Source of the DNA: Candidatus Pacebacteria bacterium CG2_30_36_39
GTDB lineage: Bacteria; Patescibacteriota; Microgenomatia; UBA1400; PJMF01
DNA length: 64,000 nt
Assembly: GCA_001873435.1 (NCBI GenBank)
Contig: MNZB01000004.1
Location: 307,004 to 371,003, forward strand
Direction: 5' to 3'
The position numbers were made by a program, and so were the translations under genes. Below, piece after piece: positions 1 to 36,738 of this stretch; positions within the stretch are counted from its first letter, which is position 1, and each line of letters opens with the position of its first letter. The notes beneath the pieces are model-generated. The model was not told the DNA's origin and did no database searches. It saw only the letters and a program-made list of their open reading frames with translations.

Positions 1-545
1 TTATCCAAATAAATGACTCTAAACTCTTCTCTAGCTCTAAATAAATCTGATTCTATAGATTTGACGGTTCTATCTAATAAAATTGAGATCTCTTTTACCC
101 TCATCTTATCTATGTATTTCAATAAAAGAAGTTCTCGATATTCCTTTTTCATTTCTGATAAAACAGAGTTGACTAATTTAGTGACATCCTCAGAACCATG
201 AAGTGGCTTTTGTAAAATTTCTTCAAACAGTGGAATTGTTTGCAAAGCCTTTTTAGCATATTTTTTACGATAAAAATCTGCTATTTCATGATGCAAAATA
301 CTAGTCATCCAAGTTTTTAAACTCGATTCTCCTCTAAAAAGAGGTAATTGACGCAAAGCATTGATAAACATTTCTTGAACTAGTTCTTCAGCGTCATTTG
401 TATTGGAGATTTTTTTTAGAGTTAAATTATAAAAATATGAAAAAAAATGGTTATACCAAGTTTTTACTGCATGCTTATCACCACCACGAAGCTTTATTAA
501 TAATTCTTTCTCCTCATCGCTAGTAAATGCTTGACTTATCCTCAT
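1..545 (-). CDS. RNA polymerase sigma factor, sigma-70/ECF family. The 3' end runs off the window start.
   Basis: Reverse-strand translation from the ATG at 545 gives MRISQAFTSDEEKELLIKLRGGDKHAVKTWYNHFFSYFYNLTLKKISNTNDAEELVQEMFINA..., a sigma region-2-like helix, then ...YRELLLLKYIDKMRVKEISILLDRTVKSIESDLFRAR..., a region-4 HTH. The frame is open to position 1. Confidence 0.75.
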   Translation of the reverse strand, partial: MRISQAFTSDEEKELLIKLRGGDKHAVKTWYNHFFSYFYNLTLKKISNTNDAEELVQEMFINALRQLPLFRGESSLKTWMTSILHHEIADFYRKKYAKKALQTIPLFEEILQKPLHGSEDVTKLVNSVLSEMKKEYRELLLLKYIDKMRVKEISILLDRTVKSIESDLFRAREEFRVIYLD

Positions 546-571
546 ACTTTTACTGATATAATACCATCGAC

Positions 572-904
572 ATGATTTATTCACTTCTTGCACAAAATGG
601 TGGTTCAGGTCTTGATCTAGGCTCAACCCTAACACTTCGAGGTGGAACCCCCGTTAAAGATATTTACAAAACACCAGGAGATTTGGTTAACCTAATTGTT
701 CCAAATATGTTTGTATTGGGAGGAATTGCTGTTTTTGCCATGATGTTGCTTGCTGGTTTTAAATTTATTAGTAACACATCCAAGGGCAAAGAAGAGTCGC
801 TGGTTATTTTTAAAAACGCTGTCATTGGTTTTTCTGTCATGTTTTGTGCTTACTGGGTAGTTCAGGTTATTAAACTTGTAACAGGAGCTGATATTCCTTT
901 ATAA
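572..904 (+). CDS. Small two-helix membrane protein, paralog 1 of a tandem VirB2/TrbC-like pilin family. It has no obvious signal peptide.
   Basis: 110 aa. Hydrophobic helix MFVLGGIAVFAMMLLAGFKFI, charged loop SNTSKGKEESLVIFKN, second helix AVIGFSVMFCAYWVV. The N-terminus LLAQN..DLG resembles paralog 3. Confidence 0.45.
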   Translation: MIYSLLAQNGGSGLDLGSTLTLRGGTPVKDIYKTPGDLVNLIVPNMFVLGGIAVFAMMLLAGFKFISNTSKGKEESLVIFKNAVIGFSVMFCAYWVVQVIKLVTGADIPL

Positions 905-924
905 AATCATATAAAAGTAATACA

Positions 925-1389
925 ATGCCAAATAGAAAAATGAATAAATTAACCAAAATATTATTAACAACACCAGTTTTTTTAAGTTTAGCTCGTTTTT
1001 CTAATGTTTTTGCCGTTTCACCAGTCCCATCATCTGGCGCTGGTTCAAATGTTTTTGGTACCATCAAAGCTCCAGCTGGAGTAGCAAAATATAATGCTGC
1101 CAGTGGGGGTGGAATTGGCATAATCTTATTTGTTTCCAACGGAATTCGTATTGTCACTGTTGTTGCTGGCGTATGGGTTATGCTCAACTTTATTTTGGCA
1201 GGATGGAAATACATTACATCTAGTGGAGACACCAAAGCCCACACAGAGGCTTCTTCAATGATGACTAATAGTGTTATGGGTTTGGCAATAATAGTTGGCT
1301 CCTATACTGTTGCTGCAATTTTTGGCCTGATTTTCTTTGGCGATGCCACATACATTCTCAATCCGAAATTAGAAGGTGTAGGAATTTAA
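925..1389 (+). CDS. VirB2/TrbC-like pilin-family membrane protein, paralog 2, with a signal peptide.
   Basis: 154 aa. N-terminal signal peptide MNKLTKILLTTPVFLSLARFSNVFA, then TM1-loop-TM2: WKYITSSGDTKAHTEASSMMTNSVMGLAIIVGSY. Confidence 0.5.
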   Translation: MPNRKMNKLTKILLTTPVFLSLARFSNVFAVSPVPSSGAGSNVFGTIKAPAGVAKYNAASGGGIGIILFVSNGIRIVTVVAGVWVMLNFILAGWKYITSSGDTKAHTEASSMMTNSVMGLAIIVGSYTVAAIFGLIFFGDATYILNPKLEGVGI

Positions 1390-1390
1390 T

Positions 1391-1792
1391 ATGTTATCAA
1401 TTTTGTCTTTAATCGCTCAAAACAACACCATTGATCTTGGAGGTTTTACCCCACCAACAGATGCTTATAGTAAAGGCTCTGGTAGTTCTGCCAATGGAGC
1501 TCAAGCGCTTAAAAACCTCGAGCTTTTCATTTCCAACATCATTGGCTTTATGACTGCTCTTGGTGGAATTTTCTTTGTTATTTATTTCGTGTTAGGAGCA
1601 TTTGAATGGATTAGTAGTGGTGGAGACAAAGGCAAAGTAGAAAAAGCTCGCAACCGAATGATGAATGGTGCCATTGGCTTGGTTTTAATGGTAGCTGCCT
1701 ACGGAATCATTGGTTTACTTGGCAGCTTTGTTGGTCTAGATTTACTCAACCCAGCTGAACAAATTAATCAAATATATAGCACTATTAAATAA
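1391..1792 (+). CDS. VirB2/TrbC-like pilin-family membrane protein, paralog 3.
   Basis: 133 aa. Core FEWISSGGDKGKVEKARNRMMNGAIGLVLMVAAY shared with paralogs 4-6. Tightly packed, 1 nt after paralog 2. Confidence 0.5.
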   Translation: MLSILSLIAQNNTIDLGGFTPPTDAYSKGSGSSANGAQALKNLELFISNIIGFMTALGGIFFVIYFVLGAFEWISSGGDKGKVEKARNRMMNGAIGLVLMVAAYGIIGLLGSFVGLDLLNPAEQINQIYSTIK

Positions 1793-1794
1793 AC

Positions 1795-2202
1795 ATGAAA
1801 AAATTAACCACTTCAATTTTAGCCGTTATCGCTGGATTATTACTCTCAACTGGTAATACTTATGCTGAATTAACAAACCCAGTTATTGGTGATTCTCTTG
1901 GTAGTGATGCAGACAAGGCAAATGAAGGTACTACTTTTGCTGAATACTTTATTTTCTTTTGGAATGCTTTGATAAGTATTGGTGCCATCATGGTACTTAT
2001 TTTCTTCATTTGGGGGGCATTGGAATGGATTAGTAGTGGTGGAGACAAAGGCAAAGTAGAAAATGCTCGCAACCGAATTACTCAAGCTTTTATTGGTCTA
2101 GTTGTCTTAGTTGGTTCTTATGTAATTATTGGTTTTGTAAGTGAAATCTTCTTTGGCGAATCATTTAACGTCTTACAAATTAATATTCCAGAGCCAAAAT
2201 AA
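1795..2202 (+). CDS. VirB2/TrbC-like pilin-family membrane protein, paralog 4, with a signal peptide.
   Basis: 135 aa. Signal MKKLTTSILAVIAGLLLSTGNTYA; core LEWISSGGDKGKVENARNRITQAFIGLVVLVGSY. Confidence 0.5.
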   Translation: MKKLTTSILAVIAGLLLSTGNTYAELTNPVIGDSLGSDADKANEGTTFAEYFIFFWNALISIGAIMVLIFFIWGALEWISSGGDKGKVENARNRITQAFIGLVVLVGSYVIIGFVSEIFFGESFNVLQINIPEPK

Positions 2203-2203
2203 T

Positions 2204-2551
2204 ATGTCACAAAAACTCATTGCCGCTACTCTAGATCTTGCTAAATCAGCCAGCCAAGGGAACCTCCCTGGAGCTGGTAGTTCTGACCCTCAAAAAGGAT
2301 TTGGAGATTTTTTAAGTGGTCTAATGGGTGGAATTATGGTTTTGGCGGCAATCATGGTTTTGCTTTTTCTCATTTGGGGAGCAATTGATTGGATTACTAG
2401 CGCTGGTGACAAAGGAAAACTCGAAGCTGCTCGCAACAAAATCACTAATTCTCTTATCGGATTAGTTGTCTTAGCAGCTACTACAGCCATATTTATGTTG
2501 ATTCAAAGTTTGCTAGGTATTTGTGTTTTAAGCTTTGGAAACGGCTGTTAA
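2204..2551 (+). CDS. VirB2/TrbC-like pilin-family membrane protein, paralog 5.
   Basis: Track ORF 2141..2551 overlaps paralog 4. The likely start is the Met of MSQKLIAAT at 2204. Core IDWITSAGDKGKLEAARNKITNSLIGLVVLAAT. Confidence 0.45.
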   Translation: MSQKLIAATLDLAKSASQGNLPGAGSSDPQKGFGDFLSGLMGGIMVLAAIMVLLFLIWGAIDWITSAGDKGKLEAARNKITNSLIGLVVLAATTAIFMLIQSLLGICVLSFGNGC

Positions 2552-2564
2552 AAAAAACGTTTTT

Positions 2565-2593
2565 GACGTAGGACAGCAAAACTTGATACAATA
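2565..2593 (+). promoter_or_regulatory. Sigma-70-like promoter upstream of paralog 6.
   Basis: TTGACG at 2565-2570, a 17-nt spacer, then TACAAT at 2588-2593. Confidence 0.4.
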
Positions 2594-2645
2594 ACAAAGA
2601 ATTTAGGTTTAATAGTAAAAAAAGTAAACGTAAAAAAAGGAAAAT

Positions 2646-3050
2646 ATGAACAAAGTTCAAAAATTCGCCATTTCTACAGGAATGACCTTAAGCGGCTTAG
2701 CTTCTGCTGTTATGCCTGTTGCTGCTGCTACAAAAATTACTGACACCAACGTCGACCCTGGAAAAGGTTTTGCTACCGATTTTGGTGGCTTAATTAATGG
2801 TGTCTTGAGTTTTGTAATGGTAATTGCCGCTCTTTTAGTATTCTTGTACCTCATTTGGGGTGGTATTGAATGGATTACAAGTGGTGGCGATAAGGGTAAA
2901 ACAGAATCTGCTCGCAACAAAATCACTTCAGCCATTATTGGTTTGGTGGTCGTAGCTGCTTCTTACGCAATTCTCACTCTAGCCCTCAACTTCTTAGGCT
3001 TCACTGACCTCAATGATGTCTTCACAACCAGAAGTATTCAAGGTAAATAA
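2646..3050 (+). CDS. VirB2/TrbC-like pilin-family membrane protein, paralog 6, with a signal peptide.
   Basis: 134 aa. Signal ...GLASAVMPVAAA; core IEWITSGGDKGKTESARNKITSAIIGLVVVAASY. Confidence 0.5.
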   Translation: MNKVQKFAISTGMTLSGLASAVMPVAAATKITDTNVDPGKGFATDFGGLINGVLSFVMVIAALLVFLYLIWGGIEWITSGGDKGKTESARNKITSAIIGLVVVAASYAILTLALNFLGFTDLNDVFTTRSIQGK

Positions 3051-3069
3051 TCTCTCAATTTTGAGCATT

Positions 3070-3099
3070 AAAACCCCGTCGCAAGGCGGGGTTTTTGGT
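3070..3099 (+). terminator. Rho-independent terminator.
   Basis: AAAACCCCGUC-GCAA-GGCGGGGUUUUU: a 7-bp GC stem with a GCAA tetraloop and a U-run. Confidence 0.7.
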
Positions 3100-3123
3100 T
3101 ATATTCTCCAAAAGCATTAAGCC

Positions 3124-3567
3124 ATGTATAATGATCAAATCATGCCTTTAAGCAATTCACTTAAAAAAACTGTTAAAACCATCTCTAGCTCAATACTAAT
3201 GTTTTTCTTAGCTTTTTCCCCAGCCAATGCCCAAACACAAGCTTGGACTGGAGTTTGTGTCAGCACCAGAGATGAAACAGTCGCAACAATACAAGGTTTT
3301 CAATGTTTGTTGGCAAATGTTTTGAGTGGTTTTTTAACCCTAGTGGGAATGGCTGGTTTCATCACCCTAATCGTTGCTGGTATAAGAATTTTATTATCTG
3401 GTGGTAATAGTCAGGCATTAGAAAAATCAAAAAGTTCAATTACCTTTGCAATTCTTGGTTTAATTGTAGCTCTAAGTGCCTTTATGATTCTAAATTTGGT
3501 AGCAGAATTTACTGGTGTTAAAACCATTTTAAATTTTGTAATTCCAGACTCAAACCATCAGTGGTAA
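3124..3567 (+). CDS. VirB2/TrbC-like pilin-family membrane protein, paralog 7, divergent.
   Basis: 147 aa. Signal-like N-terminus, two hydrophobic helices flanking the loop LLSGGNSQALEKSKSS. A possible alternative start is at MPLSNSL (3142). Confidence 0.4.
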   Translation: MYNDQIMPLSNSLKKTVKTISSSILMFFLAFSPANAQTQAWTGVCVSTRDETVATIQGFQCLLANVLSGFLTLVGMAGFITLIVAGIRILLSGGNSQALEKSKSSITFAILGLIVALSAFMILNLVAEFTGVKTILNFVIPDSNHQW

Positions 3568-16663: not shown

Positions 16664-18712
16664 CTATTCAGTTGGGGGAGAGTAGTCATTAATTGTGTAA
16701 TAACCAGCGTATTGTTTTTGTTTGGCTTTTTGTTCTGTTTCGGCTGCTAGTTTTTCATCTTCATCTTGAATTAGTTGCTTTTCTTGAGGAGCTTGAATAG
16801 GTTCTAACTGTTTTTCTTGTTTTGGTTTGAAAAGTGAAGAGAAGTCTTGTTTTTCTTTCTTTTTAACTTCATCTTCTGCTTCTTTTTGTAATTGAAATTG
16901 CTTGTTTTCCGCCCTTTGTTTGAGAACCTCTTCTGGATTTGTTGTAATAACTTCATGTTCTTCATCGCTAGCCACAACTCTTAAAGCTACGTGGTTTTGT
17001 CCTGCAAAAAATACACCCTCTCCAACGTCAGACGAAACCAGCAATTGTCTTTCTCCCTCAGATAAATAAAATGTTTCAGCTAAAACAGGGATTGAAGCGC
17101 TTGATTGCTTCATTAAAAATTGGATAGAAGCATTACTGACAATAGCTTTTCCATAATCATTATGTAAAAAGTCCTCAACATCTTGAGTAATAGTAGTAAT
17201 TCCTAAATAATATTTACGTGCTCTTTTAACCATAGAGTGAATAAAAGAGGCACTGTCTTTATGCTTCATAAAATACCAGGCTTCATCAATCACTAAAATT
17301 CTACGTTTTAAATTCTTTTTTACTCTAGTCCAAATAAAATCTAGGATAATAAACATAGCAATAGGCCTAAGAGCTTCTTCCATTTCTTTTACAGAAAATA
17401 CTGTAAAAGGATTGGTAATATTCATATTGGATGGTTTATCAAAAATACCTCTAAAGGAACCGGTGATAAACTTTTCAAGTCTAGCAGCAATATCATTAGC
17501 ATCATCATTTTCCATACCAATTAGTGCTTTATATAGATCTTCCATTAGAGGTGGTTCGTTTGTTTGAGTTACTGGATCTGGAGTAATGCCCTTGGCTTTA
17601 TAAGCAGCAATTAAAGCTCTATCTAATAAGGCTTCTTGTTGGGCAGTCATTTCTCCCAACATGACTTTTAGTAATCCGTGTAGGGTAATAACTTTTTGTC
17701 CAAGCTCATTTTCTCCCTCCTCATACATAGCAGAGAGATCAAATGGATTTAGTTTTGTTTCAGAACCAAAGGTGAAGTTAATATATTCTCCGCCAACTTT
17801 TTTAGCTAACTCCTCATATTCGTGTTCTGGGTCAAGAACAATTACTTCAGCATCAAACATTAATTGACGAATAATTTCCAATTTAACAGTATAAGACTTG
17901 CCTGCACCAGATTTAGCGAAAATAACCATGTTGGCATTTTCCATTTTAAAACGATCAAAAATTACCAATGAATCATTATGTTCATTAATTCCATAAAGAA
18001 TTCCAGTTTCCATGGTTAATTCTGAAGAAGTAAAAGGAAAGGTTGTGGCTAGTGACGTAGTATCCATGTTTCTAGTAATCATTAGCTTATCTTTACCCAT
18101 TGGAAGAGTGGTCTTAAAGCCTTCATCCATTTGCAAAGTTGCCTTTTTAGAAACAATAAGCAGAGAACCCAACATTGATTGAATGTTTTTGGTTATTTTA
18201 TCTAAAAACTCCATACTTGGAGCATTCAGAGTTATATATAGACCAAATTGAAAAAATCTCTCTGATCCAGCTGCTAGTTGTTCTCGAATGGACCTAGCAT
18301 CACTTAATTTAATCTCAGTATTAATATTACTAATTTTTCCAGATCTGATGTCAGATTGGATTTCTGCCTCCATCTCAGTAATTTTTCTTTTTAAGTTATC
18401 TAAAACCTCAGAAGAGTCAACGGGATAAACAAACATTGAGATGTTTGCTTGACTAGGAAAGTTAATAAGAGGAGATAACCAGTTGGCTGGAACTGTACGA
18501 GGGTAGCCGGCCACAAAAAGAGTACGGGTGTAAGTAGAGTTAATTTGTTGATAGGTAAAATCAACCTCAATTGCTTCAGGAGCAATAATGTCTTGAATTG
18601 TTACTAGACCTTGAGAAAACTCTTTGATCTTTTCCATCTCTTTTTGTTCTTGAGTTGGTTCTGAAGAGTTATTCGTGGTTTTTTTGCTAAAAAATGGCAA
18701 CTGAAAGGGCAT
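16664..18712 (-). CDS. VirB4/TrsE/PrgJ-family T4SS ATPase, core and C-terminal ATPase portion.
   Basis: 682 aa. ...TRTLFVAGYPRTVPANWLSPLINF...ISMFVYPVD...LKRKITEMEA; Walker A FAKSGAGKSYTVK; Walker B ILVIDEAWYFM. Matches the Gram-positive conjugative VirB4 layout. Confidence 0.85.
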   Translation of the reverse strand: MPFQLPFFSKKTTNNSSEPTQEQKEMEKIKEFSQGLVTIQDIIAPEAIEVDFTYQQINSTYTRTLFVAGYPRTVPANWLSPLINFPSQANISMFVYPVDSSEVLDNLKRKITEMEAEIQSDIRSGKISNINTEIKLSDARSIREQLAAGSERFFQFGLYITLNAPSMEFLDKITKNIQSMLGSLLIVSKKATLQMDEGFKTTLPMGKDKLMITRNMDTTSLATTFPFTSSELTMETGILYGINEHNDSLVIFDRFKMENANMVIFAKSGAGKSYTVKLEIIRQLMFDAEVIVLDPEHEYEELAKKVGGEYINFTFGSETKLNPFDLSAMYEEGENELGQKVITLHGLLKVMLGEMTAQQEALLDRALIAAYKAKGITPDPVTQTNEPPLMEDLYKALIGMENDDANDIAARLEKFITGSFRGIFDKPSNMNITNPFTVFSVKEMEEALRPIAMFIILDFIWTRVKKNLKRRILVIDEAWYFMKHKDSASFIHSMVKRARKYYLGITTITQDVEDFLHNDYGKAIVSNASIQFLMKQSSASIPVLAETFYLSEGERQLLVSSDVGEGVFFAGQNHVALRVVASDEEHEVITTNPEEVLKQRAENKQFQLQKEAEDEVKKKEKQDFSSLFKPKQEKQLEPIQAPQEKQLIQDEDEKLAAETEQKAKQKQYAGYYTINDYSPPTE

Positions 18713-18758: not shown

Positions 18759-19817
18759 CTATAATTCTGCCACAGGTGGTAATGTTTGATCTACTTTTGG
18801 TTGATTTTGCACCACAATTGGAGCTACTTCAATTTCTTTTTTTACTTCGTTTGGTTGTAAAACTTGATTATTTGCAGTTTTTGCTGCCTCAAAGACTGTT
18901 TGGGTTTGAATTTGAGTAGGTGTTTGTTTTGGAATTTCAACAGGAGTAGTTTGATTTTGCGGGACAACCTGTAAATTTGGTCTTGGAGCAGCTTCTTCTG
19001 GCATTTCCTTTGGTACTACCGCCGAAGCTGCTATTTCAGCAGTTCCTGCTTCCGGCACATCTTTGACGGACTGAATGTTTTCTTTCTTAGAATCATTATC
19101 TTTAGTGAGACTGATTAATGAATTTAAGTCTGGAGCTGTTTGAGCCTGAACAGTCATTGTTTCATAATCTTGACTGTTGGTAATTTGCTGACCCTCATAG
19201 GCCTCTGGGTTATAGCTATTATAGAAAAACTCAATTATTTCTTGAGTTAAGATTTGTCTAGCGAATAAGCCAATTCTATTAAATTGAGCAATTAAGTGAT
19301 CTCTTCTTGGTTCCAGAACTCCAAGGCCCTTTTCTATTACTGCGGCTTTTTGTTCTTTGGTTAGACTAGGAGCACTACTGCCGGGAAGAACACTCTGTGG
19401 TGTAACCATGCCAACCTCTGCAGGAGAAGCAGGAATAGTTACATAGAATTTTTTATCAAGAACATTTCTTTCTTTGATTAATTGACCAACAAAACCCTGA
19501 TATCTTTGAATTAACGCTCTCTTTTCATTAGTAGTGGCTTTTTCAGCTTGAATATCTAATAAACGAAGATAAGCAGTCGCGTCTTTTGTTTTAGAACTAA
19601 TAATAATTTGAATTGGAAAGTTTAGTGAATTAAGGAGTGCGGCGTAGGCATAAATAATTGCATCTTGTTCTTGCTCTGCTAATAAGCCGAAATTCATTGC
19701 ACTGACCATTAAAGTCATGGAAACAGTTCCATCTTTTAAAATAGCTACGTCATTAGAAATATCAAAAATATCTAAAAACTTTTGTGTTGTGGAAGAAATA
19801 TCATCGCCAGCAGACAT
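18759..19817 (-). CDS. VirB4 N-terminal-domain-like protein, encoded separately upstream of the ATPase and carrying a long disordered tail.
   Basis: 352 aa. DISNDVAILKDGTVSMTLMVSAMNFGLLAEQEQDAIIYAYAALLNSLNFPIQIIISSKTKD...KKFYVTIPA resembles the first roughly 150 aa of TrsE/PrgJ-type VirB4. The C-terminal roughly 170 aa is Q/P/T-rich low complexity. Confidence 0.55.
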   Translation of the reverse strand: MSAGDDISSTTQKFLDIFDISNDVAILKDGTVSMTLMVSAMNFGLLAEQEQDAIIYAYAALLNSLNFPIQIIISSKTKDATAYLRLLDIQAEKATTNEKRALIQRYQGFVGQLIKERNVLDKKFYVTIPASPAEVGMVTPQSVLPGSSAPSLTKEQKAAVIEKGLGVLEPRRDHLIAQFNRIGLFARQILTQEIIEFFYNSYNPEAYEGQQITNSQDYETMTVQAQTAPDLNSLISLTKDNDSKKENIQSVKDVPEAGTAEIAASAVVPKEMPEEAAPRPNLQVVPQNQTTPVEIPKQTPTQIQTQTVFEAAKTANNQVLQPNEVKKEIEVAPIVVQNQPKVDQTLPPVAEL

Positions 19818-19869: not shown

Positions 19870-20889
19870 TTAAACGGATCTTATTTCCAATGGTGTAATG
19901 ATTTTGCCGCTTAAAGTTAAAGTTTTTTCAGTAAATTGAAAATCTGTTTTTTCGACAGAAATAATATAAGTGCCATTAGGAAGGGCAGTGCTCAAACTAA
20001 ATTGTCCCAATAAATTAGTTTTTAATGAGGAGACAACCTGTCCCTGGGTTGTTTTTATTGTTATCACTGCTTGATCAACCAACTTATTGTCTTGAGTTAA
20101 AACCATACCAACAATAGTATTTGGAGTAGTTGGTTGTTTTGGAAAAGGAAGACTTTCGTTGGTGGAGATTGTTTCTTTTGGAATTTCTATCGTTTTGTTA
20201 ATAGGGATTGTTTCTGGAACTGGCTGCAGGATTGTTTTGTCTGCTGAGGCAATCTCAATTTTTTTATTAGTTTGTTGTTGCTGTTGAAAAATAATGTTTT
20301 CAGAGTTTTCAACCATGTCTTGACTTTTTTTAGCCAAATTTCTTACTTTTGGTACTAAATTTGGTTTTACTTTTCTTGGCGTTGCAGTTATTTCTGTTAC
20401 CTGAACATTTTCATAAAGAGCCAAAACATCTCTAATTTTTATGTTTTCTTCATCATCAAAGGAGTCGGTGGGTTTTTGATCTCCTACAGAACTAAGGTAT
20501 TCTTTAATTCTTTGTCTACGAGCTGGGGTTAAATCAATTTCAAAAGCTTCCTCTTCCTTGGTTTTTTCTCTTTTTTGGTGAGTAAAGGCAAATGGAATTT
20601 CTGTTTCTTTTTTCCAATAATATTTAGTTGGGTTATAAATAATCTTAAAAAATGTAGTAATCCAGTGATCCAAAGGTCTTTCTTCTATTGGAACAAAGGC
20701 GATAATTACACCAAATCCAGCCGAGAGAATAATAAGAGTCCATTTAACAATGCCTATTAAATTGGTGTTGTAAATAATTACAGCAATCACCACACCCAAA
20801 GCAACCTCTGCAAATTGCTTTAAGGTCATATTGCCAACAATATGAAATTTATATCCCACAACGTCTTGTGGAATTGGATGATCACGCAT
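19870..20889 (-). CDS. PrgI/VirB3-like T4SS membrane protein with a C-terminal carboxypeptidase-regulatory-like beta-sandwich domain.
   Basis: N-terminus IPQDVVGYKFHIVGNMTLKQF followed by two TM helices, a PrgI-family pattern. The C-terminus TIVGMVLTQDNKLVDQAVITIKTTQGQ...GQFSLS.LPNGTYIISVEKTDF fits the CarboxypepD_reg-like motif. Confidence 0.5.
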   Translation of the reverse strand: MRDHPIPQDVVGYKFHIVGNMTLKQFAEVALGVVIAVIIYNTNLIGIVKWTLIILSAGFGVIIAFVPIEERPLDHWITTFFKIIYNPTKYYWKKETEIPFAFTHQKREKTKEEEAFEIDLTPARRQRIKEYLSSVGDQKPTDSFDDEENIKIRDVLALYENVQVTEITATPRKVKPNLVPKVRNLAKKSQDMVENSENIIFQQQQQTNKKIEIASADKTILQPVPETIPINKTIEIPKETISTNESLPFPKQPTTPNTIVGMVLTQDNKLVDQAVITIKTTQGQVVSSLKTNLLGQFSLSTALPNGTYIISVEKTDFQFTEKTLTLSGKIITPLEIRSV

Positions 20890-20964: not shown

Positions 20965-21972
20965 CTATTCAACTTTTACTGCTGGAGTGATAATTTCAGC
21001 GTCTATTATTTTTCCTTCATTGCTAAACAACTTTCCCACAAAGTGATAGAAAGGGTAAGCAATTTTTTGATTTAAGTCAGCTCGATATTCAATAGTAACA
21101 CTAGTTAAATCTCCAGATTCTATTTCTTTTAAAGAGATGGTTCCAGTTTCTTTATTATATGCGGAGATGATTGAAGCTTCTTGTCTATTATTTATATTGT
21201 CTATTGCCTCATTAATTGGAATGGTGGTCAAGTTTTTTTCGGTTAATAGCGGATAAATAAATTTATCTTGGAAAACTATTTTTTGAACTTCATAATCACT
21301 GTTTATTAATACTGATATAGCAGCCTGTTTTTGATGTTCTAGAAACAAGGGGATATTATTAATTGTATAGATGAAAGGTACTTCAATAATTGTTGTTTCA
21401 CCAAAAGATACTTCTCTAAGTTCTCCAATTCCATAAAAACGCTTAATTCCACCTTTGTACATAGTTAAAGGAAGGCTGTTAAAAACAGTTTTTACAAAGT
21501 CTTGAGCAACTTTTGTTGCTTTGTTTGTTTCAGAAATAAGATTGTCTTTTGGTGAGAAATTGGAATAAAAAAGATATGAATCATCTTGAGTATTATATGA
21601 GAGAGTAAACTTCTCACCTTTCCAAAGACCTGGTACATCAGGCACTATTTTTAGTGAATGCTCTTTTATTAATTGATCCTTTAGATATTCAGCTGTAATA
21701 GTGCTGGGACTAATTGTTGCTAACGGATATTTTGGTTTTGCTTCTGGAACTTCACCTGTAAAACGAATATTTTTAAATCTGGTTTGATCTCCGCCATTAT
21801 TTGTTATTACAAAATCTGTTTTGGGAATTATTGTTTCTTTTGGAGTAAAAATAGTAAAGAGTGTTGTTAAAACTAAGCCAACAACACTAATTCCAATCAA
21901 TATCACATACCATTTTTTTTCAGCTAAAAATGTTTTTTGAGTTTTATTCATAACATGTCCTAACTGGATCAT
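20965..21972 (-). CDS. Bitopic membrane protein; a possible VirB8-like T4SS component.
   Basis: 335 aa. Single N-terminal TM WYVILIGISVVGLVLTTLFTIF with a large extracytoplasmic domain. The call rests on position in the cluster only. Confidence 0.3.
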   Translation of the reverse strand: MIQLGHVMNKTQKTFLAEKKWYVILIGISVVGLVLTTLFTIFTPKETIIPKTDFVITNNGGDQTRFKNIRFTGEVPEAKPKYPLATISPSTITAEYLKDQLIKEHSLKIVPDVPGLWKGEKFTLSYNTQDDSYLFYSNFSPKDNLISETNKATKVAQDFVKTVFNSLPLTMYKGGIKRFYGIGELREVSFGETTIIEVPFIYTINNIPLFLEHQKQAAISVLINSDYEVQKIVFQDKFIYPLLTEKNLTTIPINEAIDNINNRQEASIISAYNKETGTISLKEIESGDLTSVTIEYRADLNQKIAYPFYHFVGKLFSNEGKIIDAEIITPAVKVE

Positions 21973-24900
21973 TTACTTTAACACTTGCTCCGTCTGGCAT
22001 TAAAGATGGTAAAGTTCCAGAATTTGGTGGACTACCAATTAAACCAAAATGTAGGTGAGGGCCAGAAGAATTACCAGTATTTCCCATGACTCCTAAAATT
22101 TCTCCAGCAGAAACACTTTTGCAAGAAAGAGTGTTTGAAGATCTCATGTGAGCTAATACAAAACTACCTTCAGCAGATTTTAAAACCACATGAATTCCAT
22201 AGCCTGGATCCATATTTCCAGGACAGGCTTCTCCATCAAAAGGAGCAAAAATTGGTGTACCTTCGCTATTAGCAATGTCAAAAGCATCAACTCTCTGATG
22301 TGAATAACTACCACCTGGTAGCTGAGTAATAGTTCCACTGGCGGGCCAACAACCAGCACCTTGAGAATAATCACCGATATAAACTACTTCACCAGTAATA
22401 GCGTTATCAGTGCCTTCCACACCCGTTTCTGGATCCTTAGCGAAGATTTTTAAATCAAAAGTATTTAAAATTGAGGCATTATCATATTTTTCATCAAATG
22501 TTTCTGAATAAGAGAGAACAACCGACTCTCCTGGAGTAATAACCATTTCCTCATATAATTCTGGAAAGTCAGTTAAATTTTTTATTCTATCTGGAATTGT
22601 TGGGGGAGTTTTGCCCTCCTCTTCCCAAGCCTTTTTGCTGTGGTTAACTTTTAAGGTGTCTTTGGCATCTAAAACTTGTAAAGTAAAGTTTCCTTTTGGA
22701 GTAATAGTGATCGTGTATTCAACTTTTAAAGGAAAGGCTGGGTTTTCACATTTGTTTTCTGGACAACCAGCAATAAATGCTCTTTTTTCAATAGTGACAT
22801 ATTCTGACTCTTTGCCCGGAGTAGAACCAGAAACAGTACTTAGAGGATCAACAATGGGGAAGTTGGCTAATAGAGCACCAGATTGAACGGCGTGTAAAAG
22901 TAGATTTCCCCCAGTAATTAAACCAGCTGATGTTAATACTGCTTGGGTTGCGATGTGGGTTACTGATTTGGTTACAATTAAATTTGAATGGGGAATGGCA
23001 TTGTTGATTGCTGCTTTTTTTGCCAAAGCGCTATTTGCAGCCGAGATCGATGAACTAGTGCTTGGAACATGAATGGCTGACGCACTTTTGGCACCACTAA
23101 ATAAATCACCAAACCATTTTTCTGCACCATATCCAAGCCAACCTCCACCAATGGCTCCAGCCAAGGCTCCGCCTGGGCCTCCAAAAATACCTCCCAAAAC
23201 TCCACCAAGGGTTGCACCAATACGACCACCCCATGTTAGTAGTGGAACAATCAAAGATCCAAGTCCTAAGCCACCACCAATTAATAAGGCCTGGCGACCC
23301 TTTTTTGTGGTAGCTATTTTTGCAAAGAAACCAAGAGCTGGGTGAATAGCTGTTCCAGCAGCAGCAGCTCCACTGCTCAAACCAGCTTCTGCAGCCTTTT
23401 CAGCCGCTTTAGCAGCTGCCTTTTTACTTAGTCTTGAGCTAACACCATTAATTCCTCTTTTGAGTTTGTTTCCCAATCCAGCCGTTTGTTTTCTAAAAGA
23501 TTTAATACTAGATAGTGGAGACCTAATAACTCCAGCTTGGGGAATGTATTGAGATTCATAGCCGTTGGCTTGAGATTGATCGTAAGATGCTGCGGCTCCG
23601 CCAATTAGAGGAGCTAAATCATGAATTGCTAACTCTCGTGGAACAAAATTAACATCATTGGCAATGTTTTTAACTGCATTGCCACCGGCTTCTCCATACC
23701 CCAAAGCAACGAGAATTTGTTCTCTTTCTTCGTATTGTATGTTTTCCCAGACACTTTTTAAAAAAGCTTCTTTTTTCTTACTATCTATTAGTGGGCTTTT
23801 ACCGTTGGTTAGTTCAACTATTTCTCCTGGGTTGGAAGAAATAGCTTTTGCTCCAACCATGGTTTTGTTAGTTGGAGCTGCTACTCCTCTAGCAAAAACC
23901 TGATTACTTTTACTAGCTGATATCTCGCCCTTGCTTTTATCTAGTAAATCTAGGGCTTCTCTAGTAGCAAATCTAGCTTCATTGTGTAATAAGATTTGTC
24001 CAGTTTTTCGGCCAAGAATTGATCTGCGAGCAATCCAAATTTCTTGTAATGATTCATAAATATCTGGTCTAAAAGGTATTTCATCACCAAAAATCAAGCG
24101 AAAGCGACCTTCATCAATGTATTTTAATAGTTCAATTGGGTAGGCCTGATCAATCCAGGAATCAATTACGTTAACAACGTTTGTTTTTGAAAGTGCCAAA
24201 CGATCGTCTCTAACACCAATTCTTCGAAGCTCTGTTTCAAGTAGCTTGTCTGTTTCTTTGGTTAGATAGTCAACGTCTCCGCTAGCAAGTTTGTCTCCAG
24301 AGAGACTAGTTAAGATTTCTTGTTCTTTAGAATTTTCAAAAACCCCAGAAAAACTTTGAATAAGGGGGCTTATATCTTCTCCCTGAGAGGCTCTTTCAAT
24401 TGCATTTTCTATTTGTTCTTTAATTTTGGGGTCGGTATTTCCTTTAACTATGTCTTCTAGTCTGTTTGAGATTAAAGAAGTGGTACGAAAATCGTTTTGT
24501 ACCATCCAAATATATTCTCGAATGAGAGTTAGTCTAGTTTCTGGATCAAGTAGGTTTTTATGTTTTCCATCTCCAATTACGGTAAGGAAAAAACCAGTTG
24601 TTTTTTGTGAAAGTAACTCACGAAGTTCTCTAGAATTCTGTAGGGTTCCAGGCGGTAATTTATGAAAAATTTCTAATTGAACAAGGGCTATTTCAGTAAA
24701 ATTAACAGACTGCTCTCTTAAAGCCGGACTAAATAGTTGGCTTTTAATATCAAGTAATTCTTCTGGTTTTGTTTCTTTTTTTTCTTCTAGTGGTCTATTT
24801 TCTTCGTCTTTACCTTCGTTTTCAGCGTTTTCTTCCTCGTTTTCTTGAGCCTGAGTAGTTCCGGTTGCAACCACTGCTGTATCCACCGATTGGGTTTCTT

Positions 24901-25450
24901 CTTCGTCCTCCTCTTTTTCTTCTTCTTCCTCTTTTTTTTCTGTTTTTTCTAAAGCGGCGATTAAAAATCTGGCTACTGGTTTAATATAGTCAGTTAATAA
25001 TGAGTTGAGATAGCGATCATCGTCTTTTGAAATTTCTAGATCAAAATCATGTGATTTACAGTAATCAATAATGGCAGTGGCTTTTTTTAGAACATCCGTT
25101 GGGGCTTCTTTTGTATAAAAAGATAGGATTGTTTGTGGATCGCCGCCTATTAATTTGTAATAAATGTCAGCGAATAAAAAAGCTAAATCGCTTTTATATA
25201 AAAAGAAGCCGGGATCTTCTTTGTCTTTCTCATCAGTGTCTTTTCTGTTTTTAGTTGTGTAATAGAGAGTGTCTAGGGAATAACTTTTAAAGAGTTGTGC
25301 ATACGAAAAATTGATTTGGGCTTCTTCTTTAATGTCTGTGTTGAGAATTAGTTTTAAAAAACCAATTGCTGATTCTTTGGTTAAACCATCAACAGCTCTT
25401 TTTAAAGCATAACGACCATTAGCTAGTGTGTATGAAGCATCATCAGCCAT
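21944..25450 (-). CDS. Giant transmembrane protein with a C-terminal M23 (LytM) peptidoglycan endopeptidase domain; a T4SS-associated cell-wall hydrolase of the PrgK/TraG class.
   Basis: 1168 aa. C-terminus GSYSHQRVDAFDI...GIHVVLKSAEGSFVLAHM...MGNTGNSSGPHLHFGL, the M23 HxxxD / HxH motifs. Central Gly-rich TM region GGGLGLGSLIVPLLTWGG...GGIFGGPGGALAGAIGGGWLGYG. Acidic N-terminal cytoplasmic part of about 700 aa. Confidence 0.7.
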   Translation of the reverse strand: MADDASYTLANGRYALKRAVDGLTKESAIGFLKLILNTDIKEEAQINFSYAQLFKSYSLDTLYYTTKNRKDTDEKDKEDPGFFLYKSDLAFLFADIYYKLIGGDPQTILSFYTKEAPTDVLKKATAIIDYCKSHDFDLEISKDDDRYLNSLLTDYIKPVARFLIAALEKTEKKEEEEEKEEDEEETQSVDTAVVATGTTQAQENEEENAENEGKDEENRPLEEKKETKPEELLDIKSQLFSPALREQSVNFTEIALVQLEIFHKLPPGTLQNSRELRELLSQKTTGFFLTVIGDGKHKNLLDPETRLTLIREYIWMVQNDFRTTSLISNRLEDIVKGNTDPKIKEQIENAIERASQGEDISPLIQSFSGVFENSKEQEILTSLSGDKLASGDVDYLTKETDKLLETELRRIGVRDDRLALSKTNVVNVIDSWIDQAYPIELLKYIDEGRFRLIFGDEIPFRPDIYESLQEIWIARRSILGRKTGQILLHNEARFATREALDLLDKSKGEISASKSNQVFARGVAAPTNKTMVGAKAISSNPGEIVELTNGKSPLIDSKKKEAFLKSVWENIQYEEREQILVALGYGEAGGNAVKNIANDVNFVPRELAIHDLAPLIGGAAASYDQSQANGYESQYIPQAGVIRSPLSSIKSFRKQTAGLGNKLKRGINGVSSRLSKKAAAKAAEKAAEAGLSSGAAAAGTAIHPALGFFAKIATTKKGRQALLIGGGLGLGSLIVPLLTWGGRIGATLGGVLGGIFGGPGGALAGAIGGGWLGYGAEKWFGDLFSGAKSASAIHVPSTSSSISAANSALAKKAAINNAIPHSNLIVTKSVTHIATQAVLTSAGLITGGNLLLHAVQSGALLANFPIVDPLSTVSGSTPGKESEYVTIEKRAFIAGCPENKCENPAFPLKVEYTITITPKGNFTLQVLDAKDTLKVNHSKKAWEEEGKTPPTIPDRIKNLTDFPELYEEMVITPGESVVLSYSETFDEKYDNASILNTFDLKIFAKDPETGVEGTDNAITGEVVYIGDYSQGAGCWPASGTITQLPGGSYSHQRVDAFDIANSEGTPIFAPFDGEACPGNMDPGYGIHVVLKSAEGSFVLAHMRSSNTLSCKSVSAGEILGVMGNTGNSSGPHLHFGLIGSPPNSGTLPSLMPDGASVKVNDPVRTCYE

Positions 25451-25497: not shown

Positions 25498-27228
25498 CTA
25501 GATTAGATTGGCTATAAAACCACCTAGTGTTTCTGCTGGTTTGTTAATTATTGGCATGGTTTTTTTGGGAAAACTAGGGTTTATAGGAGAGCTATTTTTA
25601 GTAGAACTAGCATAATTTGGTGGTGATTTGTAATTCATTTCGCAACTCAAGCACCAATCACATTCTCCAATCCAAGTATTTAATGATCCACATCTCACGC
25701 AACTTCCCATACTCCAATCTTTAGCTCTGTCTGATCCAATGTATTTAGCCAAATCTTTTCTAGATAAACTTGCAAAATCAAAACTTCCCCTTAATTTAAT
25801 TAATTGCTGAACGCTTCCAATTGGACTTAGGGCAACACATTCAATTAGTGAAGTATTGAATGCTTTGGTGGCTGATGAAAAATTAAGATTTTTTGCAAGA
25901 GAAAGAGCAAAAGCTTCTTCACCTAAATTACCATATTTTTTGAAGTGTTCAAAAATTGAAACGCGTTTTTTACTTGATATTTTTTTGACATCCAGTATTC
26001 CAGCTAAAACAACTCTTTTAATAAATATTCCCAATTTGTTAACAGTATTAGTTTCCAGGTTTGGGTCGTTTTTTAATTCGTCTGAAAAAGTATCTAATAC
26101 TAATTCAGCATATTCCTTGAGAGCTGGTTCCATTTTTTCTATTTTTTTACGAGTGATTTTTTGTCTTATTTTTTTAAAGAATTTATTTTCTGGGAAAATT
26201 TCCAAAAATGTGTCAGAGGCAGTTTTTTCTTGAAAATTATTTGGTAAAGTTATTAGCTGTTCCATTACAAATTTTTCTTTGGCTTTGAAATCTAAATCAC
26301 TAAAGTTTTCAGGAACAGATATCCCTAATTTGGTAAATAGTTTTTTATGATCTGACCAATCTCTTGGCGCCATGTGTTGATCATGTAAAAGAATAAAGCG
26401 GTTTAGACTGGGAATAAATATTGGTTGAGCAATTACCATGACGCTTAGGTTGCCTTCATGTACTTCTGATTGTGGCATTAGATAGAGGTATTTTGGGCCA
26501 ATAGTAATTGGTTCTATTTGTTCAGTTAAACCCATTTTTCTTCTAACTTCAGGGCGAATAAATTGAAAAGAATCGGTTGGTGATAAGGTTTTCCAGCCTT
26601 TATTTTCCAGGATTTTTTGAGTTTTATTTTCTGGATTTCTGTTTGTTTTGACTTCTTTTTTATCTTCACTTATTAAAGCTATCCAGGCGTGTGGGGATTG
26701 ATTGAATAAGTCTCTGATGTTTAAAAGTAGCTGTTCTATTTGTTGTTTTTCCAATAAATAACGGTCTTTTTCTGCTTGATTGATGACTAAGGATTGAACA
26801 GCATCTTCACAGATTTGAAGTAAGTCTGGCCTGAGTTTGTATACATCGTCATAGAGAGCAATTTCCCCGGATTCTTTTTGAGCGATGTCATAGGCTAGGT
26901 GAGTAATTGGCAGTCTTTGGGTTTCAGATAATATGGAGCGAAAAAAATAGATTAGTAGATCGATTTGTTGTTGGCGATTTTTTATTGGTAGAACTTCTTT
27001 GATTAAAAAATTTAATATGACAATGATCTTGTCTTGTTCTGGGTTGGGGATTTCTTTGGTTGTTAAGTTTTCAGTTTCTGGTTTTTCCAACCTAGAAAGA
27101 TCGCTTAATTCATTGACTAAAGAAGCCGAAAAAATACCTCCTGTGTCAATAGAGCTTAATTCTTTAAAGCCAAATGTTGGTAAAAGTTGGTCGGTTGTGG
27201 TTGGTGTAAATGTTTGTTCTGATAACAC
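25498..27228 (-). CDS. Hypothetical protein with a C-terminal Cys4 zinc-ribbon. GTG start.
   Basis: 576 aa. ...CVRCGSLNTWIGECDWCLSCE. No other motif recognised. The start codon is GTG at 27228-27226. Confidence 0.35.
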   Translation of the reverse strand: MLSEQTFTPTTTDQLLPTFGFKELSSIDTGGIFSASLVNELSDLSRLEKPETENLTTKEIPNPEQDKIIVILNFLIKEVLPIKNRQQQIDLLIYFFRSILSETQRLPITHLAYDIAQKESGEIALYDDVYKLRPDLLQICEDAVQSLVINQAEKDRYLLEKQQIEQLLLNIRDLFNQSPHAWIALISEDKKEVKTNRNPENKTQKILENKGWKTLSPTDSFQFIRPEVRRKMGLTEQIEPITIGPKYLYLMPQSEVHEGNLSVMVIAQPIFIPSLNRFILLHDQHMAPRDWSDHKKLFTKLGISVPENFSDLDFKAKEKFVMEQLITLPNNFQEKTASDTFLEIFPENKFFKKIRQKITRKKIEKMEPALKEYAELVLDTFSDELKNDPNLETNTVNKLGIFIKRVVLAGILDVKKISSKKRVSIFEHFKKYGNLGEEAFALSLAKNLNFSSATKAFNTSLIECVALSPIGSVQQLIKLRGSFDFASLSRKDLAKYIGSDRAKDWSMGSCVRCGSLNTWIGECDWCLSCEMNYKSPPNYASSTKNSSPINPSFPKKTMPIINKPAETLGGFIANLI

Positions 27229-30500: not shown

Positions 30501-30943
30501 TAAGAGACTCAATGGAAGCTGGTGGACTTTCTTCATATAAAAGAGAAGTTACTAGCGTAATCAATGCAATTTGTGAACGTCCAATTTATGAGGCTGTACC
30601 AAGAGATAAATCAAATCCATATGGAAGTTATGACATAGTTGAGACTGGGAACAAACAAAAACAATCCAAATCAATCCAACCTTACGAAAATTGGAGGTTA
30701 CATAAAAGAGATAATTATCTTAAAAAATGGTATCCACATGAGCATCATGGCGAGGCTCCTCCAGCCACAGTTCTCGGGTTGAGTGCAGAAGCAATAGTTC
30801 ATCCACTAAAAACCTTAAAAAAGAGTTTGAGGGGTAAAAATCCAGCGGAAGCTGAATTTTTGAAAATGATGGCTGGTGAAGAAGAAATTCCTGATTTAGT
30901 TGAGAGATCTGGCAGTTTAATTCAAACAAGCAGTGAAGAATAA
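27512..30943 (+). CDS. Large soluble E/K-rich coiled-coil protein of unknown function.
   Basis: 1143 aa. No TM and no signal peptide. Highly charged with long predicted coiled-coil stretches. Embedded in the T4SS-like locus. Confidence 0.35.
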   Translation: MVEAGKFAPLKEVIKKVEKYFSLSELFISLEGFPKEQNLVKILTSIEDRIFDEDGELTDRADDETYILLVSKICKEALAVFTQIEETARRNAEKEAMAGLTGAKFKMEAIVGIKKTTKNKEVMVVADLMRGVIYTYLNKLAEEGLLTTEDMTELGFTKNDVDVISKNLIEKSKEEMDAWKNGEAEVQFPILTELRDIILETPTTKDEILDLQQRITDLSSETKSQLVAAGVVGDKYQFIETTFFVPAEQKMMELTKEKTRLEEEEASEEKNRETQEAIAEFRSKTALFEAAIKNIPLERKDLTTIWEPRSPGSPELIEKPFNPIDQKDNKRFSKQLKELERRRNILLEEKQKLENADAFKKADADKLGSTEINKVIDEMLRRFEEVSRRVNSLIEEAKKPPIEEMTITDLADELIRERRDPFFWKEFKSSAVGSDRINQVINAFIGEIGKRKENDPEAEINRIVQKVRVQLSTLSNELQHEDEKASRDRSRLWTEAAKRILTRRELLIATTYNPKWGNQIREMLEWATRTAALNPGEVVVKRNGKLVVIPTDGTVVVDENGVVNKIPNPVKDGNEGWPELKPGEKILYSYDRSMDYNELAGENGSTNLTKKLKEKFKDYAEDPEMAYAMQFAFDLFVSFDLLTISLGELQKRTRTRAHNGAVKDKDRIMFHDPLASAIHRAYRYGGNKYDWSLRILVFFEKFGKSGQFQYGKDKSKVSKKVRESKHYQSDHEKIIELQDMLVDHQDIFYDASAFAGKIPLPGFCETVGISTYDFLTLHGPEDTQGTGGKGEKLWLFDHLIDYQNRTIPGSEKDAEDPDAVDLASDLDEIEDLTEETKEILRSINLTNIFLLKARRADLIEDEIFKNLSEDQQKIILKATEEAVKIPDGEKVDKAASIELYALAEENGFAQLLELTFKKMGPVTEEHILRKTKDGGKGGLLGEWLQTAGRAKMFPSSQLRLFLAPLLTNFVMRLFQNFEGKGNEAERETLFKDVVDELRDSMEAGGLSSYKREVTSVINAICERPIYEAVPRDKSNPYGSYDIVETGNKQKQSKSIQPYENWRLHKRDNYLKKWYPHEHHGEAPPATVLGLSAEAIVHPLKTLKKSLRGKNPAEAEFLKMMAGEEEIPDLVERSGSLIQTSSEE

Positions 30944-36309: not shown

Positions 36310-36738
36310 TTATAGAATTTTTAATCCGAAGATAGCTTCGAGTATTTGAGCTATCCAATATGAGGCAAAAAGCAGGATAAATCCCAAAATTGCCATAGTA
36401 ACTCTTTGTTTTCCAGCATCAAGGCTTTTGCCATTTGAGGCTCCGGCTAATATTTGCAATCCTCCTGCCACGATCATGACAAAAAGAGCTAGGCCAGCTA
36501 TTGGAAATACAAAGCTTAAGGCTCTGGAAATAATGCCTCCTGGAGTAGAGAGTTCTGCTGCATGGGGAGAGTTTTCTGTTTGTAGAGGATCAAAAGTATT
36601 GAGTACATCAGAAGTAACTTCAAAAGTATCAGCGTCTGGCAAACCACCATTGCCTTGGGCATTAATTATGGTTGGAGTAATAAAAGAAAAAACACCAACT
36701 AAAAAAGCAGTGGAAAGAAATAGAAGAGATTTTTTCAT
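36310..36738 (-). CDS. VirB2/TrbC-like pilin-family membrane protein, paralog 8.
   Basis: 142 aa. Signal MKKSLLFLSTAFLVGVFSFITPTIINA. TM1, loop ASNGKSLDAGKQRVTMA, TM2 ILGFILLFASYWIAQIL: the same architecture as the 572-3567 array. Confidence 0.45.
   Translation of the reverse strand: MKKSLLFLSTAFLVGVFSFITPTIINAQGNGGLPDADTFEVTSDVLNTFDPLQTENSPHAAELSTPGGIISRALSFVFPIAGLALFVMIVAGGLQILAGASNGKSLDAGKQRVTMAILGFILLFASYWIAQILEAIFGLKIL

Follow-up and report, generated by a model that had tools for sequence, protein, structure and literature searches.

The window analyzed here is a 64,000-nucleotide (nt) stretch of the genome of Candidatus Pacebacteria bacterium CG2_30_36_39 (contig MNZB01000004.1, positions 307,004 to 371,003 of the forward strand), and it carries between its positions 572 and 3567 an array of seven consecutive plus-strand open reading frames (ORFs), here called p1 to p7, with intergenic gaps of 1-95 base pairs (bp), whose products belong to a family of small pilin-like membrane proteins of type IV secretion systems (T4SSs). 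Candidatus Pacebacteria fall within the Minisyncoccota, alias Patescibacteria or the candidate phyla radiation (CPR), and the window covers the replication-origin region of the genome, with dnaA, dnaN, rnpA, yidC and jag alongside a Gram-positive-type set of T4SS genes. An initial annotation, made from the sequence without database searches, had described seven genes of 110-154 amino acids (aa) in a VirB2/TrbC-like pilin family with nine members in the window. The gene count and the sizes hold, and so does the core of the family call, although the family is PF18895 (T4SS_pilin), a sister of the canonical TrbC/VirB2 family PF04956; PF18895 is the best Pfam match for all seven array proteins. 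When every six-frame ORF of 50 aa or more was scanned with a hidden Markov model (HMM), exactly nine members emerged in the window, the two outside the array being p8 (36310-36738, minus strand, 142 aa) and p9 (36742-37989, minus strand, 415 aa). The p6 protein is 100% identical to a deposited hypothetical protein of Candidatus Pacebacteria bacterium CG10_big_fil_rev_8_21...

All nine copies share one architecture, in which a variable N-terminal part precedes two helices joined by a short polar loop, and two strongly hydrophobic stretches appear in every copy by the Kyte-Doolittle scale, in agreement with the two-helix design first described. For p6, an AlphaFold2 model gives a helical hairpin (residues 46-78 and 83-116) at a predicted local distance difference test score (pLDDT) above 90, preceded by an N-terminal part of low confidence. 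The loops are net basic, consistent with the positive-inside rule; the motif WI[ST]SGGDKGKxExARN, which had been taken to be common to all seven array genes, is real in p3-p6 (with SAGD in p5), but the loops of p1, p2, p7, p8 and p9 are clearly different. Signal peptides were judged by eye, and Sec-like leaders were recognized in p2, p4, p6, p7, p8 and p9 and none in p1, p3 and p5. An extended N-terminus for p1 and p3 was ruled out because in-frame stops lie 5 and 3 codons upstream of their starts. In the p3 orthologues of three related contigs (L003-L005), a full signal peptide is replaced by a very short hydrophobic N-terminus that they have in common, M-L-x-I-[FL]-S-L-I-A-Q (window positions 1391-1423), and the p1 N-terminus, MIYSLLAQN, resembles that of p3.

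Along the array, p1 (572-904) encodes 110 aa with no leader and a divergent loop and matches PF18895 at 22.1 bits (E = 1.6e-4), p2 (925-1389) encodes 154 aa with a leader and a degenerate loop, SSGDTKAH (15.7 bits), p3 (1391-1792) encodes 133 aa with the short conserved N-terminus MLSILSLIAQN and the full loop motif (44.4 bits), and p4 (1795-2202) encodes 135 aa with a leader and the full motif (32.4 bits). The mechanically called ORF of p5 begins at a GTG at 2141, inside p4; its orthologues begin at the position of the ATG at 2204 (MSQK...), one base past the p4 stop, which gives a protein of 115 aa (2204-2551) with the loop SAGDKGK and a score of 29.4 bits. The proposed major subunit, p6 (2646-3050), has 134 aa and scores 42.2 bits. 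Lastly, p7, which carries a leader and a divergent loop and scores 31.1 bits, ends at 3567 and begins at either 3124, as in the ORF list (147 aa), or 3142 (141 aa); the ATG at 3142 is the likelier start, since a TATAAT at 3127-3132 lies 9 nt before it and the same layout recurs in the L003 orthologue. The copies in the window are only 18-46% identical to one another in pairwise comparison, which agrees with the earlier description of strongly differing N-terminal parts, these being the parts that diverge fastest. At the DNA level the only repeats in the array are cores of about 150 nt in genes 3-6, 62-75% identical, and recent duplication or gene conversion among these four genes was rejected, as each has its own orthologue in distant relatives.

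The family assignment rests on several searches that agree. Against the PF18895 gathering threshold of 26.6 bits, p3, p4, p5, p6, p7 and p8 (26.9 bits) score at or above it, and p1, p2 and p9 (25.3 bits, residues 348-402) score below it with PF18895 still their top match, so that it is the top or only family for all nine copies. A profile built from p6 orthologues alone detects all eight other copies in the window, with E-values from 2e-30 to 4e-6 (p1 4.4e-6, p2 7e-9 and p9 3e-6), and membership is therefore independent of including the copies themselves. Positional orthology likewise confirms p1, p2 and p9. Several close p6 homologues elsewhere carry a precomputed PF04956 match (P0047, P0054 and P0114). 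The curated family NF045849, of Mbov_0395 pilin-like conjugal transfer proteins, has an equivalog cut-off of 40 bits, below which p6 (33.4 bits), p3 (25.6), p7 (22.8) and p9 (22.8) all fall, with p6 nevertheless showing significant homology to it (E = 2.6e-8). The family is very large: with sequences clustered at 50% identity, the A2 alignment profile matched 74,160 representatives at E <= 0.001. One could still ask whether these are holins, bacteriocin immunity proteins, YtxH-like proteins or secreted T4SS substrates that merely resemble pilins, given that a helical hairpin is a generic shape and that structural matches to the p6 model are non-specific. We regard this as very improbable: PF18895 is the top Pfam family throughout, scans against Pfam and PHROGs returned no holin, immunity or other unrelated family, PHROGs gave nothing for the seven array genes and, for p8, a single weak match to an uncharacterized family, and the homologues keep conserved synteny with a VirB6-like gene and occur inside a plasmid-borne T4SS cluster, as detailed below.

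The two members outside the array extend the family's range of forms. The p8 protein is 55% identical to the C-terminal part of the product of L005 positions 1439-2191, and p9 bears its pilin module at the C-terminus. An AlphaFold2 model of p9 computed with 25 homologues (mean pLDDT 78.8) has strands over residues 41-272 and helices at 336-368 and 373-407, from which a signal peptide is predicted to be followed by a pair of beta-sandwich domains (about 40-160 and 165-272), a linker rich in Cys and, at the C-terminus, the hairpin. Foldseek relates the modeled strands to tandem FN3 or immunoglobulin (Ig)-like domains, including those of intimin and invasin, at E-values near 1e-5, which fits a pilin module bearing a predicted adhesin-like ectodomain. 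Elsewhere in the family, 66 of the top 150 representatives contain 2-17 pilin hairpin modules in a single polypeptide (for example P0153, P0155, P0157, P0167, P0172, P0178, P0209, P0214, P0228 and P0298), and some of these proteins are fusions of neighbors in array order, namely p2-p3, p3-p4, p4-p5, p5-p6 and p6-p7. Such multi-module proteins may be real 'polypilins' or may be frameshift artifacts.

Comparison with relatives shows that the array is a fixed set. Five contigs, ranked by the identity of their p6 homologue (L001 and L002 87%, L003 78%, L004 69%, L005 63%), all carry an array, and each window gene is most similar to the gene at the same position in these relatives, with cross-paralogue identity of only about 15-45%; the duplications are therefore old and the order p1-p7 is fixed. 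Orthologue identities in L001, L003, L004 and L005 are, respectively, 75/56/48/44% for p1, 78/55/52/43% for p2, 83/59/49/39% for p3, 73/55/47/46% for p4, 70/61/48/42% for p5, 87/79/65/62% for p6 (94/96/81/83% over its core) and 59/60/47/43% for p7, which makes p6 the most conserved copy in every comparison. When one genome per Genome Taxonomy Database (GTDB) species was scanned for the p6 loop peptide, 250 loci were confirmed, and all 45 of the loci kept with full flanks contain a same-strand run of 6-12 pilin ORFs, most often seven (22/45). Between the window and L001, the ratio of nonsynonymous to synonymous substitution rates (dN/dS) is 0.06-0.26 across all seven genes and lowest, at 0.06, in p6 and p3, and N-terminal parts have higher values (up to 0.57, in p7) than the hairpin cores (0.03-0.18), although these values are rough because dS is saturated. 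All seven copies are under purifying selection. In L001 (5063-5917) and L002 (5051-5917) a charged ORF of 284-288 aa without a family match lies between p5 and p6, where the window has a 95-bp gap. Record titles of many relatives that are clearly Patescibacteria metagenome-assembled genomes, L007, L008 and L013 among them, read 'uncultured Pseudomonadales bacterium', 'Vitreimonas sp.', 'Limisphaerales' or 'TM6' and look like mislabeled taxonomy.

These comparisons bear directly on the proposal, made in the initial annotation, that the array is a cassette for antigenic or functional variation of a surface filament. On that account the paralogues would be interchangeable alternative pilins serving antigenic variation or host-strain switching, as proposed for the VirB2 copies of Bartonella and Anaplasma, and the idea has also been raised for Patescibacteria (Quinonero-Coronel et al., 2025; PMC12102498). 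The low identity among copies, the faster divergence of the N-terminal and presumably exposed parts, the value of 0.57 in p7 and the lineage-specific extra copies in L004 and L005 all speak for it. A variation cassette would be marked by lineage-specific copies that turn over rapidly without stable orthology; what we find are one-to-one positional orthologues, in L001-L005 and down to about 40-60% identity, a gene number that recurs in many species, and purifying selection on every copy. Neither silent or partial cassettes nor repeats that point to recombination turned up at the array, the fusions of neighbors imply that the copies are used jointly, and the pilin series in the T4SS cluster of Southlakia epibionticum (SEML1_0006-0019 region) is essential (Wang et al., 2023; PMC10633639). 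We thus read the array as old and fixed and hold interchangeable variants to be improbable; one-to-one orthology, purifying selection, essentiality in S. epibionticum and the multi-module chains together argue that the parts are used together.

The expression signals single out p6. Before p1 stands an extended -10 box, TGATATAAT (554-562, plus strand), read from the sequence, which ends 9 nt before the p1 ATG, has the form of a leaderless-type promoter and is conserved in L001 and L003, and no Shine-Dalgarno sequence precedes p1. Of 53 related loci, 49 have a TATAAT-like box no more than 40 nt ahead of the first ATG, and in most the distance is 5-11 nt; with a box so close to an ATG and no Shine-Dalgarno sequence, the arrangement is that of a leaderless mRNA transcribed from a promoter of the housekeeping type. 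Such boxes close to starts (window positions 554-574 and 3127-3144; loci from L007 to L086) point to leaderless transcripts in the lineage; p6, unlike p1 and p7, has a leader with an AAGGA Shine-Dalgarno sequence. The promoter before p6 (2563-2592, plus strand) is of the sigma-70 type, TTGACG and TACAAT separated by 18 nt with an upstream TG, and is the top promoter match of the region (10/12); its -35 and -10 boxes (the latter at 2587-2592) are kept in L001, L003 and L005 and its -10 box also in L004. Behind p6, a scan found an intrinsic terminator (3070-3103, plus strand) with an 11-bp stem and a T-run, and its hairpin and T-run are preserved through compensatory changes in all five aligned genomes. 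From the p1 leaderless-type promoter, the p6 promoter and the p6 terminator, the array probably comprises three transcription units, p1-p5, p6 and p7. These signals give p6 the features of a highly expressed structural gene. It is probably the major subunit, given a conserved promoter and terminator of its own, conservation above that of any other copy, the strongest purifying selection and extra p6-like copies in L004 and L005.

Directly upstream of the array, on the minus strand (545..1), lies a gene for a 181-aa sigma factor of the extracytoplasmic function (ECF) type, with Pfam matches to Sigma70_r2 (1.3e-11) and Sigma70_r4_2 (1.5e-10). The initial annotation placed such a gene immediately upstream and thought that it could control the array; the gene is real and adjacent, but it is divergent, with 26 bp between its start codon and that of p1. 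A sigma homologue on the opposite strand lies less than 400 bp from the first pilin gene in 37 of the 45 species loci. ECF-type promoters typically combine an AAC motif at -35 with a CGT-like motif at -10. The conserved elements, the TATAAT-type box before p1 and the TTGACG-type promoter of p6, are not of this type, and control of the array as first proposed is thus not supported despite the synteny. With strong synteny on one side and conserved promoter elements that are not ECF-like on the other, the sigma factor may or may not govern the array. After the sigma gene, L001-L004 carry one or two small ORFs (61-127 aa), possibly for an anti-sigma factor.

The T4SS genes of the window supply the second line of context. 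A VirB4-like ATPase is encoded at 16664-18712 (minus strand; P-loop_TraG 7e-25, AAA_10, and CagE_TrbE_VirB 6.6e-6), a PrgI/VirB3-like protein with a C-terminal, Ig-like CarboxypepD_reg fusion at 19870-20889 (minus strand; PrgI 27.2 bits against a cut-off of 27, CarboxypepD_reg 33.4 bits), a 1168-aa protein with a C-terminal M23 peptidase, a cell-wall hydrolase with a VirB1-like role, at 21944-25450 (minus strand; Peptidase_M23 1.5e-14), and a coupling ATPase of the VirD4 or type IV coupling protein (T4CP) kind at 48072-50273 (minus strand; TrwB_AAD_bind 2.1e-10, TraG-D_C 2.3e-8). No Pfam relaxase family matched among the window proteins scanned. A 574-aa polytopic membrane protein at 31008-32732 (minus strand) is a VirB6-like candidate, with weak matches to the NCBIfam families Mbov_0396 (E = 2e-4) and MMCAP2_0566 (5e-4) from the integrative and conjugative elements (ICEs) of mycoplasmas, yet homologues 43-46% identical to it follow immediately downstream of the L004 and L005 arrays, and it is a candidate for the VirB6 that has been reported as scarce in Microgenomatia. 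Next to it stands a conserved partner gene of 273 aa (32788-33609, plus strand), 43-47% identical to the L004 and L005 genes located between the large secreted protein and the VirB6-like gene, and then a gene for a secreted, very Cys-rich protein of 881 aa (33627-36272, minus strand), which adjoins p8 and has a distant homologue (23% identity over 660 aa) directly after the array in L005.

The arrangement in relatives shows how these pieces belong together. Homologues of the 273-aa gene and the VirB6-like gene come after the array in L004 and L005; in L005 the homologue of the 881-aa protein separates the array from them, and homologues of p9 and p8 lie just upstream of the array. Because the pieces are contiguous there, we take a single locus of pilin and VirB6 genes to be the ancestral state and the window to be a rearranged version of it. 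This also refines the placing of p8 and p9, which had been described as two members at 36.3-38 kb inside the T4SS-like locus, one of them fused to a secreted domain: both members and the 415-aa p9 stand, but they adjoin the VirB6-like cluster and not the VirB4 gene at 16.7-18.7 kb. Among the neighbors, the 881-aa, 574-aa, 1143-aa, 576-aa and 273-aa proteins have no Pfam match. Large T4SS-neighborhood genes without a Pfam match also include those at 18759-19817 (352 aa) and 20965-21972 (335 aa), beside 25498-27228 (the 576-aa protein) and 27512-30943 (the 1143-aa protein, which is highly charged and probably cytoplasmic). Other envelope genes in the window encode a sortase (52061-52906) and a pseudopilin of the type IV pilus or type II secretion system kind with an N-methylation motif (60734-61261), and a 694-aa protein with a lectin domain like those of laminin G or concanavalin A is encoded at 61749-63833.

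Taken together, we think it probable, with real room for doubt, that the nine genes encode VirB2-like pilin-family subunits (PF18895) of a chromosomal T4SS of the Gram-positive type, similar to the MPF-FATA class, that forms a heteromeric pilus or conduit. Each protein would be inserted in the membrane with both termini outside and the basic loop (such as SGGDKGKxExARN) facing the cytoplasm, and the VirB4 ATPase, with the VirB3/PrgI-like and VirB6-like proteins, would extract and polymerize the subunits into one heteromeric pilus or wall-spanning conduit directed toward a host cell. In such a structure p6 would be the major subunit, p1-p5, co-transcribed from the leaderless-type promoter, would act together with p7 and p8 as specialized minor subunits, and p9, with its two predicted Ig-like domains, could be an adhesive or tip subunit. 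The data show membership of the family, the hairpin design, the T4SS genes nearby, orthology in fixed order and selection of the purifying kind; topology, the roles of major and minor subunit, the building of a filament and a part in host contact are inferred.

Several observations weigh against a pilus or conduit of this kind. None of the window proteins reaches the PF04956 threshold of 27.9 bits, for which p6 comes closest (16.9 bits, E = 0.0077), followed by p7 (12.8 bits); no solved pilin was retrieved when PDB sequences were searched with a profile, and Foldseek matches of the p6 model to the PDB all have E >= 2, with the conjugative pilus of A. pernix (8dfu) at rank 10 (target-normalized template-modeling (TM) score 0.65, root-mean-square deviation 2.7, 70 columns), the hairpin being too generic to discriminate. 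Three copies have no recognizable signal peptide, about 13 kb separate the array of this genome from virB4 and 28 kb separate it from the VirB6-like gene, the multi-module proteins, which come from protein sequences alone, could include frameshift artifacts, and the assignment of major and minor subunits draws entirely on regulatory signals and conservation. We know of no pilus made of these proteins that has been seen in any Patescibacterium, and the T4SSs of Gram-positive bacteria and mollicutes, which carry the nearest homologues outside the Patescibacteria, are to our knowledge not known for pili.

The last of these points leads to the principal rival, that the two-helix proteins form no filament but remain membrane-embedded, as parts or lining of the T4SS translocon, perhaps as the Mbov_0395-type proteins of mollicute and Bacillota elements do. 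The nearest curated relatives outside the Patescibacteria are indeed the 'pilin-like' proteins of mycoplasma ICEs and Bacillota T4SSs, chains of up to 17 modules are more readily imagined as polytopic proteins of the membrane than as subunits of a filament, and copies that lack a signal peptide suit a membrane component. Yet p9 places about 300 aa of predicted extracellular Ig-like domains on a pilin module, the strong promoter and terminator of p6 suggest a structural subunit made in high copy, nine different small subunits are many for the lining of a channel, and a hairpin with a basic loop is the VirB2 design. We accordingly consider membrane-resident channel parts rather unlikely, albeit the strongest competitor to a heteromeric pilus or conduit. 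A more ambitious version of the pilus reading, which we offer tentatively and as a possibility short of an expectation, holds that the array is an ancient, order-fixed operon system of Microgenomatia-type Patescibacteria that builds a single heteromeric T4SS filament from p6 as the major and at least six dedicated minor subunits, that the fusions are real covalent versions of it, and that the divergent ECF sigma gene is a dedicated regulatory partner; if this is true, a multi-pilin pilus of the conjugative type would for the first time be recognized in a monoderm.

Much of the bacterial diversity that is uncultured belongs to the Patescibacteria, and they apparently live attached to other microbes. 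In the sole species of the group that has been tested genetically, the T4SS and its pilin series are essential (PMC10633639). The present locus is a clean Microgenomatia-type example that sharpens the working model, pointing to a fixed set of parts and away from interchangeable variants. Within it, p6 is the likely main building block and thus a target for tagging, antibodies or cryo-electron tomography, p9 carries the predicted adhesin-like domains, and three leads can be tested: the sigma gene conserved in divergent orientation, the leaderless-type promoter and the pilin proteins built of concatenated modules.

Set against known systems, the window array is a clear but ordinary instance of a phenomenon published between 2023 and 2025 (PMC10633639; PMC12102498; PMC12857230). 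A search of 3,035 Patescibacteria genomes with PF18895 and PF04956 found 441 arrays of 2-11 VirB2-like genes in 383 assemblies, an array being at least two pilin genes in tandem or split by one non-pilin gene, with a mean identity of 25% and a maximum of 54%; arrays were especially common in Microgenomatia and Saccharimonadia, and T4SS genes often lay near dnaA (Quinonero-Coronel et al., 2025; PMC12102498). The VirB4 that goes with such arrays is of a Patescibacteria clade sister to MPF-FATA (PMC12102498), and the window has a VirB4-like gene. The formation of a pilus or conduit has been the subject of speculation in a 2025 review (PMC12857230). By the same definition the window holds an array, with seven tandem same-strand genes of PF18895 whose copies diverge to 18-46% identity, a VirB4/VirB3/VirB6 set near dnaA and dnaN, and a Microgenomatia setting indicated by the names of the related loci (Pacebacteria, Woesebacteria and Microgenomates); nothing essential differs, except that here rearrangement has split the array from virB4 (13 kb) and from two of the pilin genes (33 kb). 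By term searches, the text of PMC12102498 makes no mention of sigma factors, promoters, leaderless mRNAs or orthologues, and the only fusion it mentions is VirB3-VirB4. Apparently added here are orthology that is fixed by position, a p6 unit with its promoter and terminator, a leaderless-type promoter, the conservation of the divergent sigma gene, the link in this group between the array and a VirB6-like candidate, and the multi-module pilin proteins, all of them refinements and not a new kind of system.

With the canonical VirB2, TrbC and TraA pilins and the archaeal CedA1 pili, the array proteins share small size, a leader, two hydrophobic helices, a short basic loop and VirB3, VirB4 and VirB6 alongside; they differ in belonging to a monoderm host with an MPF-FATA-like machine and in numbering nine paralogues instead of one, and they are known here from their genes. 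The Mbov_0395/MMCAP2_0565 family of mycoplasma ICEs and Bacillota T4SSs shows hairpin similarity and the same VirB4, M23 hydrolase and VirB6-like neighbors, but those elements have one or two copies and are mobile and conjugative, and our scores fall below the equivalog cut-off; a literature search on the family names yielded no paper that uses those locus names. Outside the Patescibacteria, the sole plasmid match in a tblastn search was an 'Mbov_0395 family pilin-like conjugal transfer protein' of a Pontibacillus plasmid, 34% identical to p6, which sits in a T4SS cluster with VirB4 and an M23 peptidase, and given this single match, plasmids of cultured bacteria seldom carry the family. In Bartonella and Anaplasma phagocytophilum, too, several tandem VirB2-family genes lie beside a T4SS. 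Those amplifications are thought to be recent and variable and to serve immune evasion or host range; by contrast, purifying selection acts on the array described here, which is ancient and keeps the order and number of its genes.

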